12,909 nt of DNA from a virus (taxonomy: Duplodnaviria; Heunggongvirae; Uroviricota; Caudoviricetes), in the IMG/VR virus record IMGVR_UViG_2579779007_000005. One strand, given 5' to 3'. A program made the position numbers and the translations under genes. The notes under the pieces were generated by a model. It saw only the letters and a program-made list of their open reading frames with translations, had not been told where the DNA came from and searched no databases. Positions 776 to 9,035 of the stretch are shown piece after piece. The stretch's first letter is position 1; each line of letters starts with the position of its first letter.

Positions 776-798
776 AAAAAGCACCAGTATGGTGCTTT
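776..798. terminator. Bidirectional rho-independent terminator downstream of the 822-1130 cargo gene
   Basis: Plus strand AAAAA-AGCACC-AGTAT-GGTGCT-TTTGTGCTTTT: 6-bp stem (780-785 / 791-796), with an A-run on one side and a T-run on the other. Confidence 0.55.
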
Positions 799-1279: not shown

Positions 1280-2941
1280 TCAAATCCCATTAAATAAAGC
1301 CAACCGTTCTTTGTGGCTATCGCTCATATCGAATGCAAATTCCTCATGCTCTGCCTGGAATGTGCCAAACGCCATCAGCGCCGCAACGCTCGGGTCTATC
1401 TTGTTGGATGATTTTTTCTTGTTCGGCTTGATATTGGCGTTCGCGTCACTCTGCATCACAACATTACTCATTGACCAAGCCATCACCGGATCACCACGAT
1501 GTACAATCACCTTCCGGTTAACAAAAACTTCGAACGATTTCGCCGCCGGACTGAAACGAAGGTATGTTTGCGGGAACGGCTCCACCTCAAATCCTGCACC
1601 CTGTAGCTGCGTCCTCAAGTGCGTGGCGTTCCATGTATCGAAGCCCACCAGCCTGATATTGAAATTCTCTGCATCCACCATGATGTCATCACGGATACGG
1701 TCATAATCAATGCAGTCACCCGGTGTTGTGCGTATCCAGCCCGCCTTTACCCACTGGCGATAGATGGCGCGGTTTTTATTGGCGGGGTTCTGTAGCTGAA
1801 ATTCTGGTAGATAGTGACGGGAAACCAGCATAATCTTTTTACCGACCGGGAAGGCATAGCACACGCTGGAAATATCGCTGGTTGATGATAAGTCCAGCCC
1901 CGCGTAGCACTCCTGCCCGTATAAATCCGCCTCCGCGAACGTTCCGGCGCACTCCGCCCATGCACCGTTACCCATCCACGGCGTAGCCCCCTGACACCAG
2001 ATATTGAATCGCTTGGTGAGCATTTCCACCCACTGCGACGGAATACCCCGCGCTTTCTGGATGGTTGAGGCCAGTTTTTCACGATCTACGGAAACATCGA
2101 TATTGGGATTCGCCTTTATCCACATCGCCGGATCGTCAACCTCGCTTTCATCATCCAGCTCATAAATCAGAACGAACATGGATTCGTTCACCTCTTCACC
2201 ATCCAGTATCTGGCAGCAATAGTCGTAGTGTTGTTTACAGGCTGAAACAACGTTGCTCCCCGATGTGGTGATGGCAAATAACAGCCCCTCTGGGCGTGCC
2301 CCCATTCCCAGTTCAAGCGCGGAATAAACACCGTTGTCAGGGTGCAGGTGATATTCATCCACAATGGCAAGGCTCGGGTTTGTACCTTCAATGGTTGCCG
2401 CTTTTGCTGCCAGCGGCTTTAACAGGCTGTTGGTTTTCGGGTGTATCACCTTGTGTGCCTGAATATTTACCCGCTTTCGTAACGGTCGGGATAAAAGGCA
2501 CATCTGACGCGCATCATCAAACACGATCCGCGCCTGATCACGACTCACGGCGGCGGTGTAAATATCCTGCTGCCCGTTTTCCATAACCAGAAACCAGTTA
2601 GCCAGGATAGCGGCGACCGTGGATTTGGCATTTTTTCGCGGTACTTCAATGAATGCGCTGGTGTATTTGCGCCGTCCGGTGGCCTTAACCTTAAAGCCCA
2701 GGATGCACGCAAAGGCGAACTGCTGCCACGGCTCCAGCTCAATGGGGCTACCACGCATTGCGCCTTTTACGTGCGGACACACCCTGGAAAAGGCAATAAA
2801 CCGCTCAACGACCTCCGGATCGAACGTGTAAAGGGGGTTTTCAAGGTCAGAAAAATACCGTTTAACGGCCTGTTTCAGTCGTTTACAGGCCGTAATTTTG
2901 CCGTTTTTTACGCCTTCTGCGTACTCATGCCAGGCGGTCAA
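1280..2941 (-). CDS. terL: Terminase large subunit, HK97-like (553 aa), apparently TTG-initiated
   Basis: Conserved N-terminal region WHEYAEGVKNGKITACKRL, Walker-like VPRKNAKST, and a C-terminal nuclease-like region. The most upstream in-frame start is TTG 2941-2939, preceded by GAGGA SD at a 5-nt spacer. There is no in-frame ATG/GTG before residue 63. It overlaps terS by 17 nt. Confidence 0.9.
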   Translation of the reverse strand: MTAWHEYAEGVKNGKITACKRLKQAVKRYFSDLENPLYTFDPEVVERFIAFSRVCPHVKGAMRGSPIELEPWQQFAFACILGFKVKATGRRKYTSAFIEVPRKNAKSTVAAILANWFLVMENGQQDIYTAAVSRDQARIVFDDARQMCLLSRPLRKRVNIQAHKVIHPKTNSLLKPLAAKAATIEGTNPSLAIVDEYHLHPDNGVYSALELGMGARPEGLLFAITTSGSNVVSACKQHYDYCCQILDGEEVNESMFVLIYELDDESEVDDPAMWIKANPNIDVSVDREKLASTIQKARGIPSQWVEMLTKRFNIWCQGATPWMGNGAWAECAGTFAEADLYGQECYAGLDLSSTSDISSVCYAFPVGKKIMLVSRHYLPEFQLQNPANKNRAIYRQWVKAGWIRTTPGDCIDYDRIRDDIMVDAENFNIRLVGFDTWNATHLRTQLQGAGFEVEPFPQTYLRFSPAAKSFEVFVNRKVIVHRGDPVMAWSMSNVVMQSDANANIKPNKKKSSNKIDPSVAALMAFGTFQAEHEEFAFDMSDSHKERLALFNGI

Positions 2942-3281
2942 GCTCGTCCTCTTCCTCTGTTTCCGGTGGATTTCTGCGGCGGCTTACCGGGTCAAAACCC
3001 AGCAAAGAAGCCATTTTGATCATTATTCTTTCTGCGTCAGCCTTTGCGCTCAGTGCGGGGTTTCTGCTCTCGCTGCCCTGACTGTTAACAATGCTGAACC
3101 CGCGCGTCGCAAGGTCTTCGACGGCTTTGCGGTATATGGAGTAGTTAACACAATACAGTTCCAGATTGCTCCAGTCGGCGGGGGTAAGGTCTTCCCGCCC
3201 GGAAAGCTGGCGCGATTTTTCCTTCCACTGCCTGACCGCGATTTCATCCAGGTAAGCGGGGGCTTTTGGTGGTCTTGCCAT
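2925..3281 (-). CDS. terS: Terminase small subunit (118 aa)
   Basis: The start is taken as the internal ATG 3281-3279 (MARPPKAPAYLDEIAVRQWKE...) rather than the ATG at 3422, because the upstream 47 codons read like AT-rich intergenic DNA. P27-type TerS-like N-terminus and acidic C-terminal tail (ETEEEDELDRLA). Stop TGA 2927-2925 overlaps terL. Confidence 0.75.
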   Translation of the reverse strand: MARPPKAPAYLDEIAVRQWKEKSRQLSGREDLTPADWSNLELYCVNYSIYRKAVEDLATRGFSIVNSQGSESRNPALSAKADAERIMIKMASLLGFDPVSRRRNPPETEEEDELDRLA

Positions 3282-3332
3282 GTTCTTTTTTCGTCCAATT
3301 ATTTTCAAAAAAATTACTGTGCACAAAAATTT

Positions 3333-3392
3333 GAGGGGGCGGTCGGTGTCCGGCAGGGACGGTTTCGTCCTGAAAACCACCCCCACCCCCTC
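3333..3392. other. Candidate cos/packaging-site element in the HNH-terS intergenic region
   Basis: Inverted repeat GAGGGGGCGG (3333-3342) / CCACCCCCTC (3383-3392) with one mismatch, flanking the palindrome GGACGgtttCGTCC (3357-3370). It lies 50-110 bp upstream of terS inside a 288-bp non-coding gap (3282-3569). Confidence 0.3.
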
Positions 3393-3569
3393 TGACGGCC
3401 TCACCAGCGATTGCGAAAACATTCCATGACCTCGCGGTCACGGTCGGTTAATCGCTTCGCTGTGGTGCGTTTTGTGCGCCCTGTCCTGTTGGCTTTGTGC
3501 TCTGTCTCCTGTGTCTTCCATGTGTCACGCTGCCTTATCAGTCCACGTATCAGCCTGGTTTGCTCCTGT

Positions 3570-4010
3570 TCAGTCATCATCACCATACATCCAGTCGTTA
3601 CGGTGTGCCGCCCGTTCTTCCTGCTCGCGATACATGCCCGCTTTACGGTTTGCTTTCGTGGCTGGATCTTCCCATGTCGTCTTACGGTTGTGGCACGTCT
3701 GGCACAATGCCTGGTGATTCCACTCAGGCCAGAAGAGAACATCACCGCCGCCATTGATGGGAATGATGTGATCCACCACAAGAGCTGGTGTATAAATACC
3801 CTTAGCCAGACAACGCACGCATAACGGGTTTTTGCTCAGGTACAGGGCGCGGTATTTGTCCCACTGTCGGGAATACCCACGTGCGCGGCGGTGTCCCCGT
3901 CTGGCATCCTCTGCACGCCATGCAGCCCGCCTGTGCTCTTCACACTTGCCGGACTTCACGCGCTTATTACAGCCCGGCTCAGTGCATCGCCTTAATGGTT
4001 GCCACGGCAT
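3570..4010 (-). CDS. HNH endonuclease, terminase-associated (146 aa)
   Basis: HNH/zinc-finger motifs: CVRCL...DHIIP...N...H...CQTCHNRK and N-terminal CTEPGC...C. It lies directly upstream of terS-terL, as in HK97-like cos packaging modules. Confidence 0.85.
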   Translation of the reverse strand: MPWQPLRRCTEPGCNKRVKSGKCEEHRRAAWRAEDARRGHRRARGYSRQWDKYRALYLSKNPLCVRCLAKGIYTPALVVDHIIPINGGGDVLFWPEWNHQALCQTCHNRKTTWEDPATKANRKAGMYREQEERAAHRNDWMYGDDD

Positions 4011-4312
4011 CAGTACACCCCCACATCACGATAAACCGACCAGAGCGCAGAAATAGCCATAGGCAGTTCCGAGTGCTCAACTGGTGAAACCGCTTCCCGG
4101 TTCTCGTACAGAAAAGCGATGTACATCAGGCAACCAACACGTATTGCCGGGGTAAATTCCAGGCCGTCTTCAAAACGTTTCCCGATATGCTTCTGGCAGG
4201 CTTCCAGCGCCGCATCGGTATATATTTGCAGAAGTTCAACCTCACCATAAAAATCATCATCAAGGCGAAGATGGGCCATTACTTCATTAAGCGTAATTCT
4301 GGATTCACTCAT
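4010..4312 (-). CDS. gp6-like head-tail connector/adaptor protein (100 aa)
   Basis: ATG 4312-4310 (MSESRITLNEVMAHLRLDDD...) overlaps the portal stop by 8 nt; its TGA overlaps the HNH ATG (TGATG). Size and position match phage gp6-like connectors. Confidence 0.65.
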   Translation of the reverse strand: MSESRITLNEVMAHLRLDDDFYGEVELLQIYTDAALEACQKHIGKRFEDGLEFTPAIRVGCLMYIAFLYENREAVSPVEHSELPMAISALWSVYRDVGVY

Positions 4313-5519
4313 CTTTTTCACCTTTAATTTCCACAGTCTGCTTCCATGCCTGGCTGAACTCGTCACCCCCTTCACGCGGCGGCATACCCTCACGCTCACG
4401 GGCTTCGTTCGGATTCATGATCCCGTTCTTAATCCCTTTCTCATACGTGGCATAACGTTCGGTGGGTGTGGCGCGTAATAAATCGGCTGAATCAAACTCA
4501 ACCAGATAACGGGTACCAGGTACGGGAGAAGCCACCAGCAAAGCGGCCTTGATTTGCTGTTCGAAGTTCGCCAGCCATGGGCGCATTGTCATGGTCAGAA
4601 ACGCGCGGCTTGCCTCGCTGAAATTGCTGTAGGTGCTGTTGCTGTATTCCTGCAGAAAAATAGGCGATACGTTGAACATGCGGGCGATGTCTTCAATGGA
4701 GAAGCGACGGGAGGCCAGCCATTCCGCATCCTGGTTACTCATTCCCAGTTGCTTGTAATCCATGCCCCCTTCAAGGATTGGCGTTTTTCCGGCATTTTTC
4801 GCCCCCTTGTAGCGTTCCAGAGCATCTAATGCCTGTTTACCTTTCACGCCGTCCAGCCATTCGCCTGACGTGATAATCCCTGCCGCCATCATGCCATCTT
4901 TCATAATGCTGGCTCCGTGGCGCTGTTGAGCAAGGCCAAGCCCAAGTGCCTCACGGCAAATCGTGACGGGGGAGCGCCCCAGAAAGCCATCATCCGAGGC
5001 ATAGCGGAGATGCAGAACTTCTTCCTGTAAATACGTGCGCACCGTTCCTGTATAGGGTTCGGTGATGGTATATCGGTATTTGTGTGCGCCTGTGCGTTCC
5101 GGTACAACACACCCCGGCGCATAAGGATGAAGTGATTTTGGCTGCCCGTCCCGCCCCCACTCAATAACCGCATAGGCGTTACCGTTCAGCAGGCAGTGAC
5201 GCATCATTGTGCGTTTAAACTGGTAAGGTGTCTGGCATGAATTAGGCTGCTCATTCAGCAGAATATCTACCGGGTGACTGTCCAGCCATTCCCGCGCCTC
5301 TCTGCCCTTGTCATTACGTACCAGATACAGATAACACGGCATCGTGGCCACCGCCTCAGCGATGACAGAAACCGCGTTCATCACTGCAGGCAATGATTCA
5401 GCCGTCCCGGCAGAAACATATTCTCCGGATCCGGTATTCGGTACGCCGGACAGCGCCAGAAAATCATCAATGGACAGGTTACGCTGCTCGCTTTTTTTAC
5501 GACTAAAAGGCCACCACAT
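4305..5519 (-). CDS. HK97-family portal protein (404 aa)
   Basis: ATG 5519-5517 is tightly coupled to the protease stop; the TTG at 5609 listed in the track is rejected. Size and position fit a portal. The stop overlaps the connector ATG. Confidence 0.8.
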   Translation of the reverse strand: MWWPFSRKKSEQRNLSIDDFLALSGVPNTGSGEYVSAGTAESLPAVMNAVSVIAEAVATMPCYLYLVRNDKGREAREWLDSHPVDILLNEQPNSCQTPYQFKRTMMRHCLLNGNAYAVIEWGRDGQPKSLHPYAPGCVVPERTGAHKYRYTITEPYTGTVRTYLQEEVLHLRYASDDGFLGRSPVTICREALGLGLAQQRHGASIMKDGMMAAGIITSGEWLDGVKGKQALDALERYKGAKNAGKTPILEGGMDYKQLGMSNQDAEWLASRRFSIEDIARMFNVSPIFLQEYSNSTYSNFSEASRAFLTMTMRPWLANFEQQIKAALLVASPVPGTRYLVEFDSADLLRATPTERYATYEKGIKNGIMNPNEAREREGMPPREGGDEFSQAWKQTVEIKGEKDE

Positions 5520-5520
5520 A

Positions 5521-6081
5521 TCACAACCCCGCCAGGTCAGCCCAGCGATGACGATTATTTCCTGCCGGGCGTAATTCAGGGTGCAGTGCAAACAACGAAC
5601 GGTGGGCAATCTCCACGCCGGATTCGGGATAAGCAGGCATTGACGTTATCGTGATTTCACGGAGTTCTGCAGCGGTAACAGTGCGCAGATACGGTTTTTG
5701 CGCGATATTCCACTCCTCGCATAATGCGCGAAAGCCAAAGCTCATTCCTGTAATGTCGCCACGCTCCACCAGCGTAAGCACATCTTTTCCAAGCTGGGTA
5801 TTTGGCGGTGTCAGTTCAAAACGTAACCCGGTGTTATCCTCAGTCAATACCAGAGTGCCGGATTTGGTGCGCCCCAGCAGTTGGGTATAGTCATGCTCAT
5901 ACAGGCAGCGCACATCATTACCCGCCACCAGATAGTCAGCAAAAGCCCCCGGCGTGAACTGTTCGCGGAATTCGTCCCAGATAATTTCTGAAAGGCTGTT
6001 CCAGCGAACGGCATATCCCACCAGCTTTTTATTGCTGGCGGTCAGTTCAGATGTGCGGATTTCAAAATCGGTGTTTTTCAT
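5521..6081 (-). CDS. HK97-family prohead maturation protease (186 aa)
   Basis: ATG 6081-6079 with AGGGGA SD. The N-terminal pattern ...KLVGYAVRWNSLSEI... resembles HK97 gp4-type proteases. It sits between the capsid and portal genes; its stop (5523-5521) is 1 nt from the portal ATG. Confidence 0.8.
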   Translation of the reverse strand: MKNTDFEIRTSELTASNKKLVGYAVRWNSLSEIIWDEFREQFTPGAFADYLVAGNDVRCLYEHDYTQLLGRTKSGTLVLTEDNTGLRFELTPPNTQLGKDVLTLVERGDITGMSFGFRALCEEWNIAQKPYLRTVTAAELREITITSMPAYPESGVEIAHRSLFALHPELRPAGNNRHRWADLAGL

Positions 6082-6098
6082 CGGTGTATCCCCTGAAG

Positions 6099-6124
6099 CT
6101 AAAAAAGGAGGCCGAAGCCTCCTT
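6099..6124 (-). terminator. Intrinsic terminator with a UUCG tetraloop immediately after the capsid gene, upstream of the protease
   Basis: Minus-strand RNA reads UAA-UGAGC-AAGGAGGC-UUCG-GCCUCCUU-UUUU: an 8-bp stem (plus 6105-6112 / 6117-6124), tetraloop, then a U-run (plus A-run 6101-6106). It lies 19 nt before the protease ATG. Confidence 0.55.
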
Positions 6125-6129
6125 GCTCA

Positions 6130-7275
6130 TTACTCACCAGCCTGAATTTCCAGAATCTTGATGGCGTTCGAATCCACCACACCACCGCCCAGATATTTCT
6201 GGGTATAGATGTTAATGAATCCGGGTTCGCTGAAGTCCGGACGGGTACGCGTACCGGTTTCATGGTCAACGATGAAATAACCGCGCTTAAAGTCACCTAC
6301 TGCAATCACACCGTCCGGAATAAATTCCAGATATTCAACCGGAAGCCCCAGCAGAGAATCAGGATCACCAGCCTGTAAACGATCGCGCCAGATGTAATCA
6401 CCAGTGGCATTTTTCAGTTTTTGTGCGGAGGCGGCTGTATTTGAGTTCATCACCCATACAGCTTTTTTGCGGTACTTATTGCGCAGCGTAAATTTCAGGT
6501 CAATCAGCATGTCGGCGCTGAGACTGCCAGTAACTTTTTTCGTCTGGAGCGTACCGAAAGGACGGGTTTTGTCGTTATCCGCAGTGCGCGGGAACGCCAG
6601 GAAACCTTTAGCTTTTTTCTCGCCATCACCGGAAACCAGATCCGTTTCTTCGGTATCAACGAAAGTGTCGCCAATTTCAGAAGATAACCAGCTCATAATA
6701 TCGACTTCGGAAAAATCGATAATTTCCTGAGTGGTTTTCGGGTAAGCGTAGATCGGATACAGGCGGATGCTGACTTCGTTCAGTTTCGGCGTTGCCGTCT
6801 GGTTACGTGCCGCACCTTCCTCGCCATGCTCAACCACCGCGCCACCAGCGGAAACCAGTTGCTTAAATTCATTGCTGTGAATGGTTTTAACAGTACAGAT
6901 TTTACGCATCACCGATTCATCAGAAAGCTGACGCATAATTTCTCTGTTCAGTTCCGGGATAACCGTATAACCACCATCAGCCGGGACACTGCCGGACAGG
7001 TTGCGGGTTTCCCCGGTCAGAATGTAAGAGCGCAGTTCGTCTTTGGTGATTTTCTCTTCGACGGAAACACCTGGCTGGTTACGTTCTTCATCCGCAACAG
7101 CTTCAAGACGGGAGATTTCTGTGTCGAGGGAATCGGCTTTTGCACGCAGTTCATCAAACTGTTTGCCCTCGTCATCGTTCAGGCTGCGGTTTTCACTGTC
7201 GGCTTTTTCCAGCAGGGAGCGCATCTGGTTTTTCAGGGCGTTTTTTTGCTGGCGGAGTTCGATTAATTTCTTCAT
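6130..7275 (-). CDS. HK97-fold major capsid protein with an N-terminal coiled-coil delta (scaffold) domain; 381 aa
   Basis: The N-terminus MKKLIELRQQKNALKNQMRSLLEKA...ISRLEAVADEERN is a typical helical delta domain, followed by an HK97-like body. ATG at 7275 is chosen over the in-frame TTG 7362 and ATG 7350 on homology-type grounds; the start is uncertain. Stop TAA 6132-6130. Confidence 0.85.
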   Translation of the reverse strand: MKKLIELRQQKNALKNQMRSLLEKADSENRSLNDDEGKQFDELRAKADSLDTEISRLEAVADEERNQPGVSVEEKITKDELRSYILTGETRNLSGSVPADGGYTVIPELNREIMRQLSDESVMRKICTVKTIHSNEFKQLVSAGGAVVEHGEEGAARNQTATPKLNEVSIRLYPIYAYPKTTQEIIDFSEVDIMSWLSSEIGDTFVDTEETDLVSGDGEKKAKGFLAFPRTADNDKTRPFGTLQTKKVTGSLSADMLIDLKFTLRNKYRKKAVWVMNSNTAASAQKLKNATGDYIWRDRLQAGDPDSLLGLPVEYLEFIPDGVIAVGDFKRGYFIVDHETGTRTRPDFSEPGFINIYTQKYLGGGVVDSNAIKILEIQAGE

Positions 7276-7465
7276 GAAGGTTTTCTCGTATTGGTTAAGA
7301 TTCAGGACGTGAAACCAACACGGAGGGAGCGCGCCCGACACTCCCGGCATCTCGCAGATCAACCCAGCATCGCGCAGGGGTCAGGCGGCATTGTGGCGGC
7401 TCACGTCTGAGTGCCACGCTCCAACATATACATAAAAATCAGTATGTAAACACCTGTCAGTCAGA

Positions 7466-7559: not shown

Positions 7560-8066
7560 ATGAATTTAAGCGCAATGGCATACCCTGATACTTTCATAAT
7601 TAATGGCGAATCATTCAGAGGTAAAAGAAACGCAAAAGAAAACAAGGTATTAATTCCATATACAAATGAACCGGAAGTAACTATTGGTCAACACATTATC
7701 CAGCGTGTCGGTAAAAACGAGATAAATCTAAAAATTATAGATATGAAGTTGCTTCCCAATGGAACCCTCAGACAGGGAACCAACCATCCAAATATGTTGA
7801 CTCTCTATATTGAAAATATCACGGGAAATGAACATATGACGCCAACTAAAAGTAATACATTTAACATTGGTTCAATTAGTGGTGATCAAGTGCAGATAGG
7901 TGAGCATAACCATATGCTGGTAAACATCAGCATCACTGAACTGGTTGAAAAAGTCGCTAAATCGGGGGATGTACAAGCCAAATCAGTATTAAAGCAGTTA
8001 CTGGAAAACAGTACCGTTGCCAGCATTGTTGGGGCTGGCGCAAGTGCCCTAATAGGCTTACTGTAA
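7560..8066 (+). CDS. AT-rich cargo gene of unknown function (168 aa) with a C-terminal hydrophobic Gly/Ala-rich tail; candidate accessory or defence-type effector
   Basis: ATG 7560 with AAGGA SD at a 6-nt spacer. It is the only substantial plus-strand gene in the island and is visibly more AT-rich than its neighbours. The C-terminus STVASIVGAGASALIGLL looks like a glycine-zipper membrane segment. It is bounded by its own promoter region and a terminator. Confidence 0.7.
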   Translation: MNLSAMAYPDTFIINGESFRGKRNAKENKVLIPYTNEPEVTIGQHIIQRVGKNEINLKIIDMKLLPNGTLRQGTNHPNMLTLYIENITGNEHMTPTKSNTFNIGSISGDQVQIGEHNHMLVNISITELVEKVAKSGDVQAKSVLKQLLENSTVASIVGAGASALIGLL

Positions 8067-8072
8067 AAAAAT

Positions 8073-8093
8073 GGCCTGGATTTTACCAGGCCT
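8073..8093. terminator. Bidirectional rho-independent terminator between the convergent 82-aa gene and the 168-aa cargo gene
   Basis: Stem GGCCTGG (8073-8079), loop ATTTTAC, stem CCAGGCC (8087-8093), flanked by AAAAAAA upstream and TTTATTATTTT downstream on the plus strand. Confidence 0.55.
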
Positions 8094-8367: not shown

Positions 8368-8793
8368 CTAAAACGGTATGTTGTCCCCGTACGGATCATC
8401 GTGCTGACCCGTCTGCTGTTTTGCCCTGTTCAGTGCGTCAGTCGCCTGGTTCTGCTGGCCTTTTTTGCCGCCTGGTCGCACCGTTCGCGCACTGATTACG
8501 CTGTCTGCGATAACCTGCCAGCCTTGCCGAGTTTCGCCGTTCTGGCCTGTCCACTGACTTACCTGCATGTTACCCGCCACGCTCACCAGTTCGCCTTTGT
8601 GGTGTTTTGCCAGTGCTTCGGCCTGTCTGCCAAACGCCAGAACAGAAAGCCACATCGTCACCGCACCATCATCAGCCTGACTGCATGGCAGGGGTACTGC
8701 CATACTTACCATCGCCATTTGTGTACCCTTGCTGGTGGTCTTTAACTGCGGGTCATTTGCCAGCCGCCCGTAAGCGGCTATCTGTGCTGTCAT
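8368..8793 (-). CDS. ssb: Single-stranded DNA-binding protein (SSB)-like, 141 aa
   Basis: ATG 8793-8791 with GGAGGG SD. OB-fold-like N-terminal segment (IAAYGRLANDPQL...WLSVLAFGRQAEALAKHHKGELVSVAGNMQVSQWTGQNGETRQGWQVIAD), a Gly/Gln-rich linker, and a C-terminal ...DDPYGDNIPF resembling the SSB acidic DDDIPF tip. Confidence 0.65.
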   Translation of the reverse strand: MTAQIAAYGRLANDPQLKTTSKGTQMAMVSMAVPLPCSQADDGAVTMWLSVLAFGRQAEALAKHHKGELVSVAGNMQVSQWTGQNGETRQGWQVIADSVISARTVRPGGKKGQQNQATDALNRAKQQTGQHDDPYGDNIPF

Positions 8794-9035
8794 GATTCCA
8801 TCCCTCCGGTGTTAACGTTGATGGTTGTCACCTGTTCCGCTTCGGCAATCTCCCGCTCTGTCAACGTGGCAAAATTTGCCGCCGCCGTGGTCATTAATGC
8901 GCTTATCAGTTCGGGATGTGCTTTCGCGTATCCTTCCCCGGCGTTGCGGTCGATGATTTTTATCGACACCCTTAACCAGTGTTCCGTCAAATCAAGAGCG
9001 TGCGATTGTGATTTTTTTGTGTGCTTCGCTGTCAT
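8790..9035 (-). CDS. Hypothetical protein (81 aa)
   Basis: ATG 9035-9033; its stop overlaps the SSB-like ATG (8793) in an ATGA arrangement, implying translational coupling. Confidence 0.5.
   Translation of the reverse strand: MTAKHTKKSQSHALDLTEHWLRVSIKIIDRNAGEGYAKAHPELISALMTTAAANFATLTEREIAEAEQVTTINVNTGGMES

Follow-up and report, generated by a model that had tools for sequence, protein, structure and literature searches.

The window, that is, the whole 12,909-nt stretch of DNA analyzed here, comes from a virus of the class Caudoviricetes, and all genes in the neighborhood of the site described below are on its minus strand (Table 1). The gene for a major capsid protein of the HK97 fold, whose RefSeq relatives are annotated as 'phage major capsid protein', is followed by genes for an HK97-family prohead protease, portal, head-tail connector, HNH, TerS, and TerL. 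The operon map from 1280 to 5519 rests on Pfam, on the map of open reading frames, and on the RefSeq annotation of a 97%-identical relative (L001). Apart from the HNH-TerS interval, the genes downstream of the hairpin overlap or abut, and the capsid-protease spacer is the sole sizeable gap from the capsid gene through HNH. The window also encodes a D5-type primase and an SSB (Pfam), and it has no tail genes. The accessory ORFs on either side of the operon gave no informative matches in Pfam or PADLOC.

Table 1. Genes and sequence features around the capsid-protease junction and along its transcription unit
Feature	Position	Strand	Details
Major capsid protein gene (HK97 fold)	6130..7275	minus	PF05065, E = 5e-60; stop codon TAA at 6132-6130
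HK97-family prohead protease gene	5521..6081	minus	PF04586, E = 2e-45; first gene past the hairpin
Portal gene	5519-4305	minus	Pfam match
Head-tail connector gene	4315-4010	minus	Pfam match
HNH gene	4010-3570	minus	Pfam match
TerS gene	ORF 3422-2925	minus	Pfam match
TerL gene	2941-1280	minus	Pfam match
Capsid-protease spacer	between stop codon (6132-6130) and protease ATG (6081-6079)	minus	48 nt
Linker UGAGC	6125..6129	minus	5 nt, capsid stop to hairpin; from sequence
RNA hairpin AAGGAGGC-UUCG-GCCUCCUU	6105..6124	minus	8 bp, 5 of them G-C
Hairpin 5' arm AAGGAGGC	6124-6117	minus	UUCG loop at 6116-6113, C-G closing pair
Hairpin 3' arm GCCUCCUU	6112-6105	minus	from sequence
U-run	6101..6106	minus	six T, then AGCUUC; from sequence
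SD-like AGGGGA of the protease gene	6089..6094	minus	from sequence and alignment
Promoter-like site TTTACA-16-TATGTT	7423..7450	minus	about 150 nt before the capsid ATG; consensus scan and sequence
Bidirectional strong terminator	8073..8092	both	seven U's; scans
Terminator-like hairpin	778..798	minus	9-bp stem, then UUAUUUG; after the last gene (DUF3892)

By its gene content the element is a tail-less phage satellite, a capsid-forming PICI (cf-PICI). The cf-PICI gene set is complete, with seven Pfam matches (capsid, protease, portal, connector, HNH, TerS, and TerL), and EcCIEDL933 has been described with a matching gene list (10.1101/2022.09.08.507074). The backbone criterion for a cf-PICI was an integrase, regulators, and a primase/rep within about 10-15 kb, and absence of tail or lysis genes. 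L001 is an island of about 15 kb between hpt and gcd that runs from the integrase to TerL plus one small gene and contains no tail or lysis genes; a second relative (L005) is similar. The relative in K. pneumoniae ATCC 13883 (L006), which we take to be the same strain as DSM 30104, bears the hairpin GAGGGGC-UUCG-GCCCCUU. Helper-phage-dependent induction and tail piracy have been shown experimentally for KpCIDSM30104 and EcCIGN02175. A terminator is nowhere mentioned in the cf-PICI papers.

The first-pass annotation, made from the sequence of the window, had proposed a near-ideal intrinsic terminator at 6079-6132, and this interval is exactly the stop-to-start spacer from the capsid gene to the protease gene. 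A stem with a UUCG loop and a six-T run do lie directly after the capsid gene, and in isolation the hairpin folds with -13.3 kcal/mol (z = -3.3 against dinucleotide shuffles). The loop is of the extra-stable C(UNCG)G type (GGC-UUCG-GCC, closed by C-G). Directly 3' of the GC core is UUUUUUAG, in which six of eight residues are U. Two of these (6106-6105) pair with the AA at 6124-6123 of the 5' arm, so that UUUUAGCU with four unpaired U's remains. The U-tract of a canonical intrinsic terminator was taken to span about 7-9 nt directly behind the hairpin; the run here is shorter than that of a strong terminator like the site at 8092..8073. The anatomy of a terminator on the coding strand stands, but 'near-ideal' is too strong for a site with only four unpaired U's, three A-U pairs among the eight of the stem, and a hairpin 5 nt past the stop codon. 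On the opposite strand the hairpin is present but the U-run is not, and thus the site is unidirectional; for the same reason a plus-strand terminator at this position was rejected. The 5' arm is polypurine and resembles a Shine-Dalgarno (SD) sequence (AAGGAGG), while the 3' arm is anti-SD-like (CCUCCUU). The 5' arm was rejected as a genuine ribosome-binding site, since no AUG, GUG, or UUG is found at a usable distance. The SD-like motif of the protease gene is not occluded by the hairpin, and the protease ATG is 23 nt downstream of it.

The earlier view of the capsid gene as the first of its unit agrees with what lies upstream of it: the promoter-like site, a divergent ORF, and the bidirectional terminator, which ends the replication module upstream on the minus strand as well as the divergent 168-aa ORF on the plus strand. 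The promoter-like site is a candidate operon promoter, and the hairpin after the DUF3892 gene is likely to be the end of the transcription unit. A consensus scan of the minus strand from 7423 to the operon end, including the capsid gene, found no sigma-70-like sites, although weak or activator-dependent promoters may escape such a scan. The part of the spacer downstream of the hairpin is too short for a promoter. Since the genes are tightly packed and the hairpin is so close to the protease ATG, the genes from protease to TerL would be reached by read-through only.

We asked how often terminator-like sites arise by chance. A strict scan (dG <= -11 and at least five U's among the 8 nt that follow the GC core) gave five distinct sites in the window, each of them at the end of a gene, whereas shuffles gave 0.35 +/- 0.81; terminator-grade sites are thus enriched about 15-fold in the window relative to shuffles. 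A loose scan, which lists the hairpin, was weakly specific (23 sites against 14.6 +/- 3.9 expected). No Rfam family matched the whole window at the gathering threshold. A permissive Rfam scan of 5950-6300 gave a sole match, to a Brucella sRNA model at its 3' terminator hairpin (18.5 bits against a gathering score of 382), which is generic terminator likeness to an unrelated model. The 81-nt context in the window had an MFE z of -1.6. The whole spacers of relatives likewise gave a moderate signal against dinucleotide shuffles (median z = -1.57; z < -2 in 39%), because a G-run and a C-run fold well even when shuffled. MAFFT with RNAalifold on 107 distinct spacers recovered only three pairs and hardly any covariation, since loops of different length shift the arms out of register in the alignment. 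Structure-anchored counts were used in place of the alignment consensus, and these are fitted to the hairpin and hence biased towards it.

The sample comprised 335 relatives from Enterobacteriaceae, Morganellaceae, and Pasteurellaceae, with 223 non-redundant capsid-protease junctions. The capsid gene precedes the protease gene in 335/335. A strong hairpin is present in 212/223 junctions, within a spacer of 43-63 nt; it is weakened in four and absent from seven, and all such counts come from relatives of shared ancestry and are not independent events. The seven junctions without it show that the hairpin is not strictly required. Where it is found, 38 distinct stems and 33 loops occur. Relative to the GGGGC/GCCCC core, the stem in the window's clade is longer by one A-U pair (GGAGGC/GCCUCC). 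Compensatory changes are seen in variants such as GGGGU/ACCCC, GGGAU/AUCCC, and GGGUG/CACCC, and the Proteus clade has a different stem of 13-15 bp. In another type (L069), an A-to-G change gives a G-U pair. These variants indicate that structure rather than sequence is kept. The distance from stop codon to hairpin is 1-15 nt in 100/100 distinct hairpin-bearing spacers, and that from hairpin to protease ATG is 12-27 nt, mostly 16-24. UNCG loops occur in 28 distinct spacers (UUCG 20, UGCG 4, UACG 2, UCCG 2) and GAAA in five. In the enterobacterial clades loop variation is almost confined to the N, with one UACA besides, while other clades have GAAA or loops of 5-7 nt. Judging from these loops, the UNCG tetraloop is a within-clade preference and not a requirement of the family.

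The hairpin might instead be a neutral passenger, either carried along when the end of a capsid gene was inherited from an ancestral phage or a chance palindrome, with no present function in the island. Its loss at seven junctions would fit such a history, and the similar GGGGC/GCCCC core across clades could partly reflect common descent. Nevertheless, the pairing is kept despite strong divergence of loops, stem lengths, and flanks, there are compensatory changes and a two-sided base-pair insertion, and the spacer persists as the one sizeable capsid-to-HNH gap in an otherwise overlapping operon. Together with the non-homologous hairpins at the same position in distant phages (see below), this makes the passenger explanation highly improbable. 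A DNA-level or protein-binding site for packaging, replication, or a regulator is barely credible, although an inverted repeat can bind a dimeric protein and the core sequence is well conserved. The loop is free in sequence and length (3-7 nt) while the arms stay complementary, the G-U pairs of the L069 type would be mismatches in DNA, and the asymmetry of the U-run is strand-specific. Moreover, the packaging site of an HNH-type cos system would be expected close to the HNH and TerS genes rather than at the hairpin.

Over 100 distinct spacers, the uninterrupted U-run on the 3' side of the GC core has a mean length of 3.5 nt, compared with 1.26 nt for the A-run on the 5' side, and U exceeds A in 71 of the 100. 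This asymmetry fits a terminator better than a simple extension of the stem. The number of U's after the stem ranges from 2 to 7, and many relatives have a poor U-tract (GCCCCUUUCCAAG, GUCCCUUGUUGGG, GCCCCUUUCUGCC). Thus, what is conserved among the relatives is the hairpin more than the U-tract, a pattern that would also fit a pure RNA-stability element.

The first-pass annotation had further suggested that the hairpin may be a consequence of the capsid-first gene order. This is contradicted by HK97-like phages of the standard order (portal-protease-capsid), seven of nine of which have a strong hairpin directly after the capsid gene. In the GenBank record of HK97, a 'putative terminator' is annotated at 5192-5213 after gp5, and the hairpin there is GGGGGCGGG-GAAA-CCCGCCC-TTTTAA. 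Similar post-capsid hairpins are found in ST64B, vB_CB2a, Vibrio K254, Azospirillum Cd, phiC31, and RHph_X2_25. We found no experimental tests of these seven sites in the literature. Like the window, these phages have a homologous head module (HK97-fold capsid and S78 protease), and a GC hairpin whose arms are G-rich (5') and C-rich (3') begins a few nucleotides past the stop codon of the capsid gene, with T's after it. Unlike in the window, portal, protease, and terminase genes are upstream of the hairpin, and connector and tail genes are downstream. The hairpin thus travels with the capsid gene, independent of gene order. Since the low-copy genes lie upstream of the hairpin in the standard-order phages, it cannot set the capsid-to-portal ratio there, and therefore stoichiometry relative to portal, protease, and terminase cannot be its general purpose. 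In lambdoid phages, HK97 among them, late transcription is expected to be Q-antiterminated, and so the post-capsid hairpins may not terminate in those phages.

The same comparison bears on whether the hairpin serves translation of the protease, by insulating its ribosome-binding site from upstream structure or as a 5' stabilizer or standby site. The narrow range of distances to the protease ATG, the near-invariant GGAG of the downstream SD motif in the alignment of relatives, and the polypurine, SD-like 5' arm are all in keeping with such a role. However, the same kind of hairpin precedes an unrelated connector or hypothetical gene in other phages, the SD-like arm has no start codon within reach, and the predicted pairing of the protease SD and start codon lies at an intermediate level and differs from relative to relative in no consistent way. 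We consider this role very unlikely. In the MFE fold, the end of the capsid gene also pairs over a long range with the start of the protease gene. This helix was considered as a device for translational coupling and was dropped because of these intermediate and inconsistent pairing probabilities.

Leaky terminators after phage capsid genes are an already known kind of element, and the window's site would be a further member. In T7, the only terminator for the phage RNA polymerase (Tphi) is directly after capsid gene 10; it is incomplete, and genes 11-12 are expressed only by read-through (10.1101/106799). Like the window's site, Tphi comes right after the structural gene with the highest expression, but it acts on T7 RNA polymerase whereas the host enzyme is presumed here, and gene 10 is not the first structural gene, while in the window all other packaging genes are downstream of capsid. 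In phiX174, the weak Rho-independent terminators T_J, T_F, and T_G were measured to block 20-40% of transcription (10.1101/2020.03.05.979765). They too follow structural genes, including the major capsid gene F, and grade mRNA levels, although phiX174, an ssDNA phage, is unrelated and has non-homologous terminators, and its gene F is not first. In SPP1, a terminator is predicted at 8775-8815 after the major capsid gene 13 (PMC6316719). As in the window, its hairpin has a polypurine 5' arm (GAGAGGGGC...GCCTCTC) and is followed by T's, seven in SPP1; it starts at the stop codon of gene 13 (gene end at 8777), within the late structural cluster. SPP1 differs in that its host is Gram-positive, gene 13 is preceded by a scaffold gene, and the site is a prediction only. 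In phage LUZ7, more than 60% of the terminators are leaky.

We infer, with a probability of roughly 0.6, that the hairpin and U-run are an internal, deliberately inefficient Rho-independent terminator at the 3' end of the capsid gene. RNA polymerase would initiate upstream of the capsid gene. Some polymerases would release at the U-run and leave a short mRNA for capsid alone, with the stable C(UUCG)G hairpin closing off its 3' end, and the others would continue into the protease, portal, connector, HNH, TerS, and TerL genes. As a result, the capsid message would exceed the message for the low-copy proteins. Attenuation that favors capsid is plausible and is the most economical reading, since the downstream genes would be reachable by read-through alone, and it agrees with the measured precedents in T7 and phiX174. 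One source of leakiness would be the short U-tract. The other would be the ribosome at the capsid stop codon, which would cover the 5' arm and block folding of the hairpin when translation is closely coupled to transcription.

With a linker of 5 nt, the 5' arm falls under a ribosome positioned at the stop codon. When the lambda terminator tR2 was placed 5 bp past a stop codon, its efficiency in E. coli fell from about 90% to less than 10% (PMC4824070). This repression depends on translation of the upstream gene and is relieved by uncoupling, and the effect of distance is sequence-dependent (PMC4824070). The tR2 series matches the window in the spacing of 5 between stop and hairpin, although it is a synthetic reporter construct. 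On this precedent, a ribosome at the capsid stop codon should suppress termination. A further and more tentative suggestion, which we think rather unlikely to be correct, is that the post-capsid terminator is a translation-sensing attenuator in which coupling between capsid translation and transcription sets the share of read-through. The spacings of 1-15 nt between stop codon and hairpin in the family all fall in the range in which a ribosome would hinder folding, and the pairing of the SD-like 5' arm with the anti-SD-like 3' arm might contribute to such sensing. If so, the output of low-copy assembly and packaging proteins would be tied to successful capsid synthesis, and a helper-phage or island factor acting on coupling or on RNA polymerase could also set read-through. 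A translation-sensing attenuator may even be a general, unrecognized design rule of HK97-type head modules.

The low efficiency of tR2 at this spacing can also be read the other way, namely that the hairpin hardly terminates, ribosome repression aiding read-through, and is mainly an element of mRNA stability or processing. After endonucleolytic cleavage downstream, 3'-exonucleases would halt at the C(UUCG)G hairpin, and the capsid mRNA would outlive the distal part. The hairpin is indeed kept more strictly than the U-tract, with only 2-3 U's past the stem in many relatives; extra-stable tetraloops (the UNCG and GAAA spacers counted above) dominate several clades; and the hairpin trails the capsid gene regardless of the gene downstream. 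On the other hand, a barrier to exonucleases needs no U-run, the directional U-run of the relatives goes beyond what pairing with the A's would need, and the window's copy has a canonical six-T run. We therefore regard stabilization with little termination as a considerably less likely account. The two functions are compatible, since termination itself makes a protected 3' end.

The principle of a leaky terminator after a capsid gene has long been known from T7 and phiX174, and thus the gain in that respect is incremental. If the terminator reading is confirmed, the site would be a natural case in which the spacing to a stop codon tunes a terminator, and its hairpin would be a mutable handle on capsid-to-portal stoichiometry in tractable satellites such as KpCIDSM30104 and EcCIGN02175. 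An HK97-type capsid contains hundreds of capsid subunits and 12 portal subunits, and terminase is needed in catalytic amounts. The cf-PICIs have to assemble whole small capsids out of a single compact operon and lack the elaborate late regulation of phages, and placing capsid first with a leaky terminator behind it would be the simplest DNA-encoded way to fix the capsid ratio.

The genes around the post-capsid hairpin, a hairpin with a U-run at 6124-6101 (-) between the capsid and protease genes, are all on the minus strand. By Pfam they run in the order D5-type primase, SSB, HK97-type major capsid (PF05065), S78 prohead protease, portal, gp6-like connector, HNH, TerS (Terminase_4), TerL, and DUF3892 protein. 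Of 5,426 complete E. coli genomes, 160 have chromosomal islands that match the window DNA at 92-97% identity. The island of strain B1172, located between hpt and gcd, spans about 15 kb from an integrase to TerL and one small gene and lacks tail and lysis genes; a similar island adjoins rcnR in strain ST648. This gene content matches the published capsid-forming PICIs (cf-PICIs), tail-less elements with int, alpA, rep, major capsid, protease, portal, connectors, HNH, TerS, and TerL (10.1101/2022.09.08.507074; 10.1101/2025.02.11.637232). The word "terminator" is absent from both descriptions.

The capsid gene is the first gene of its own transcription unit (see table). The terminator behind the replication module is bidirectional and clean (GGCCUGG, 6 nt, CCAGGCC, each strand with a U-run) and separates that module from a divergent accessory ORF. 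Immunity genes are expected by the cf-PICI authors in accessory slots beside the packaging operon; the 168-aa ORF had no match in Pfam or PADLOC, and the DUF3892 protein had none in PADLOC. Past the hairpin, each gene overlaps or adjoins the next up to HNH, and thus the 48-nt capsid-protease spacer is the sole real gap in the head module. A second hairpin at 3424-3443 (-), CCGUGACC-GCGA-GGUCAUGG with a GNRA loop and then AAUGUUUUCG, lies in the HNH-TerS interval, within a small ORF that RefSeq calls hypothetical in a 97%-identical relative (L001). A cos site is expected around this interval in HNH-dependent packaging systems.

Features of the capsid transcription unit and its flanks
Feature	Position	Strand	Basis
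Strong terminator, seven U's, closing the upstream replication module	8092..8073
Divergent 168-aa ORF between that terminator and the capsid unit	7560-8066	+	ORF
Promoter-like site upstream of capsid	7450..7423
Capsid stop codon	6132-6130	-	sequence
Hairpin, 8 bp (5 G-C), C(UUCG)G tetraloop	6124-6105	-	sequence
T-run, six T's, the first two pairing with AA of the 5' arm	6106-6101	-	sequence
Protease ATG	6081-6079	-	sequence
Accessory slots flanking the packaging operon	7560-8066 and 822-1184	+ and -

The interval marked in the first-pass annotation is exactly the spacer from capsid stop to protease start. In the direction of transcription, minus-strand 6140-6079 reads CUGGUGAG UAA UGAGC AAGGAGGC UUCG GCCUCCUU UUUU AGCUUC AGGGGA UACACCG AUG. 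On its own the hairpin has a folding energy of -13.3 kcal/mol (z = -3.3). A general terminator scan includes it at low specificity (23 sites against 14.6 +/- 3.9 expected). A stricter scan (dG <= -11 and at least 5 U within 8 nt after the GC core) returned five distinct sites in the window, each at a gene end, while dinucleotide shuffles gave 0.35 +/- 0.81. The anatomy, the fold energy, and the stricter scan against shuffles confirm a hairpin with a U-run between the two genes. On the opposite (plus) strand the hairpin is present and the U-run is absent. The arms pair a perfect Shine-Dalgarno AAGGAGG with CCUCCUU, the anti-SD core of the 16S rRNA 3' end; no start codon follows the SD-like 5' arm. 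A G-rich polypurine 5' arm pairs with a C-rich polypyrimidine 3' arm throughout the family and in HK97, SPP1, and vB_CB2a; the opposite orientation never occurs among them.

Relatives were gathered from annotated genomes, from a set with one genome per species, and from IMG/VR, the last queried with the protease and three divergent capsids. Capsid was followed by protease in all 335 fetched loci, which represent 223 non-redundant junctions with 117 distinct spacers, mostly of 43-63 nt. A strong hairpin was found in 212 of the 223 junctions and a weakened one in 4. The remaining seven have no hairpin and spacers of 10-25 nt: 24 nt in loci L132, L136, and L151, 10 nt in L138, 11 nt in L139, 25 nt in L143, and 14 nt in L217 and three identical loci. 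These collapsed spacers are natural variants of a Morganellaceae/Xenorhabdus-type clade and are ready comparators for testing the role of the hairpin. The hairpins share the core (A)AGGGGC/GCCCCU(U), and outside it they are diverse (38 distinct stems, 33 distinct loops). The clade of the window has one additional A-U pair within the stem (GGAGGC/GCCUCC), which is G-U in a sister clade. Compensated variants include GGGGU/ACCCC, GGGAU/AUCCC, GGGUG/CACCC, and GGGGUA/UGCCCC, and a Proteus clade has a different stem of 13-15 bp. Pasteurellaceae loops are GAAA or AU-rich loops of 5-6 nt. In the enterobacterial clades the loop changes almost solely at the second base (UUCG, UGCG, UACG, UCCG), which fits selection for a UNCG tetraloop. 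MAFFT/RNAalifold of the spacers could not bring the two arms into register and yielded little, so the evidence for covariation comes from structure-anchored counts, with their bias towards the hairpin, and from sequences sharing ancestry. The post-capsid hairpin is real and selected, and the first-pass annotation described it correctly.

Several records among the relatives are unusual. In L242 (= L146), downstream of the capsid stop at ~2653, the hairpin and the protease start are about 587 nt apart, and an ORF starts exactly at the usual position of the protease ATG; this looks like a gene insertion right behind the terminator. "Escherichia phage vB_KppS-Ant" (L002, LR881103.1, 16.5 kb), deposited as a phage, is an entire cf-PICI-like element, and its 2.3-kb gene after TerL is annotated "tape measure protein". 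"Klebsiella phage P12620-1" (L004, PQ569648.1, 106 kb), also deposited as a phage, carries a cf-PICI block at one end and may be a co-assembly; the annotations of both records are worth checking. A 798-nt contig labelled Flammeovirga aprica, Bacteroidota (L020, NZ_JABANE010000336.1), has a junction identical to the Klebsiella type, with the spacer of L004, and is probably contamination.

Among 100 distinct spacers, the mean length of the unbroken U-run 3' of the GC core is 3.5 nt, against 1.26 nt for the mirror 5' A-run, and the U-run is the longer in 71. The U's thus do more than lengthen the stem, and the element has the directionality expected of a terminator. Poor U-tracts are frequent in relatives (GCCCCUUUCCAAG, GUCCCUUGUUGGG, GCCCCUUUCUGCC); the six T's of the window are among the longest of the enterobacterial clades, and 6-7 are routine only in Pasteurellaceae. 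By its anatomy the site is a putative intrinsic terminator with a shortish U-tract, so "near-ideal" was too strong, and the family as a whole looks like weak-to-moderate terminators. The main rival, that the hairpin chiefly stabilises mRNA, is compatible with a terminator role and seems rather unlikely as the chief function. We favor, at a probability of roughly 0.6, a leaky terminator, probably ribosome-gated, that would enrich capsid mRNA.

The hairpin is 23 nt from the protease ATG, and a scan found no sigma-70-like site within the capsid gene on the minus strand; therefore protease, portal, and terminase are probably reachable by read-through alone. Since these proteins are required for making and filling capsids, a post-capsid terminator would have to leak. 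The hairpin begins 5 nt past the capsid stop codon, and this distance is 1-15 nt in all 100 distinct hairpin-bearing spacers. In E. coli, the lambda terminator tR2 terminates at ~90% when at least 30 bp from the upstream stop codon and at < 10% when 5 bp away; a ribosome over the 5' arm represses it, and uncoupling translation relieves the repression (PMC4824070). By analogy, we infer that a ribosome near the capsid stop codon would cover the 5' arm and turn a good-looking terminator leaky.

Nine HK97-type phages of the standard order portal-protease-capsid were compared. A strong post-capsid hairpin is present in seven (HK97, ST64B, Burkholderia vB_CB2a, Vibrio K254, Azospirillum Cd, phiC31, and Rhizobium RHph_X2_25); a post-capsid spacer is lacking in Streptococcus Javan8 and Campylobacter CJIE4-2. 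The HK97 GenBank record has a "putative terminator" at 5192-5213 right after gp5 (GGGGGCGGG-GAAA-CCCGCCC-TTTTAA), and the predicted terminator of SPP1 begins right at the capsid gene 13 stop (PMC6316719). Behind its capsid gene, Azospirillum phage Cd (L340, 1762-1830) carries GGCGGCC-UUCG-GGCCGCC, an independent case of the C(UUCG)G cap at the same position, and phiC31 (L341, 1546-1617) has a very long hairpin, with the surrounding 87 nt folding at about -52 kcal/mol. The hairpin travels with the capsid gene regardless of the next gene, and its proposed origin in the capsid-first order is not supported, as seven of nine standard-order phages and, by prediction, SPP1 share it. The order alters only the consequence: in the cf-PICI all other packaging genes sit behind the hairpin.

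Functionally, the closest counterparts are the leaky terminators of T7, phiX174, and LUZ7. T7 Tphi likewise comes directly behind the capsid gene (10), with read-through as the sole route to genes 11-12 (10.1101/106799). T_J, T_F, and T_G of phiX174 block 20-40% of transcription (10.1101/2020.03.05.979765). In phage LUZ7 more than 60% of the terminators leak, and weak ones are seen as a means to balance expression (PMC9163698). The earlier proposal that this terminator sets the capsid-to-portal/terminase stoichiometry is a plausible hypothesis. As a leaky internal terminator and 3' hairpin behind a major capsid gene, the site would be ordinary in kind, a previously undescribed cf-PICI instance of a classical phage device.
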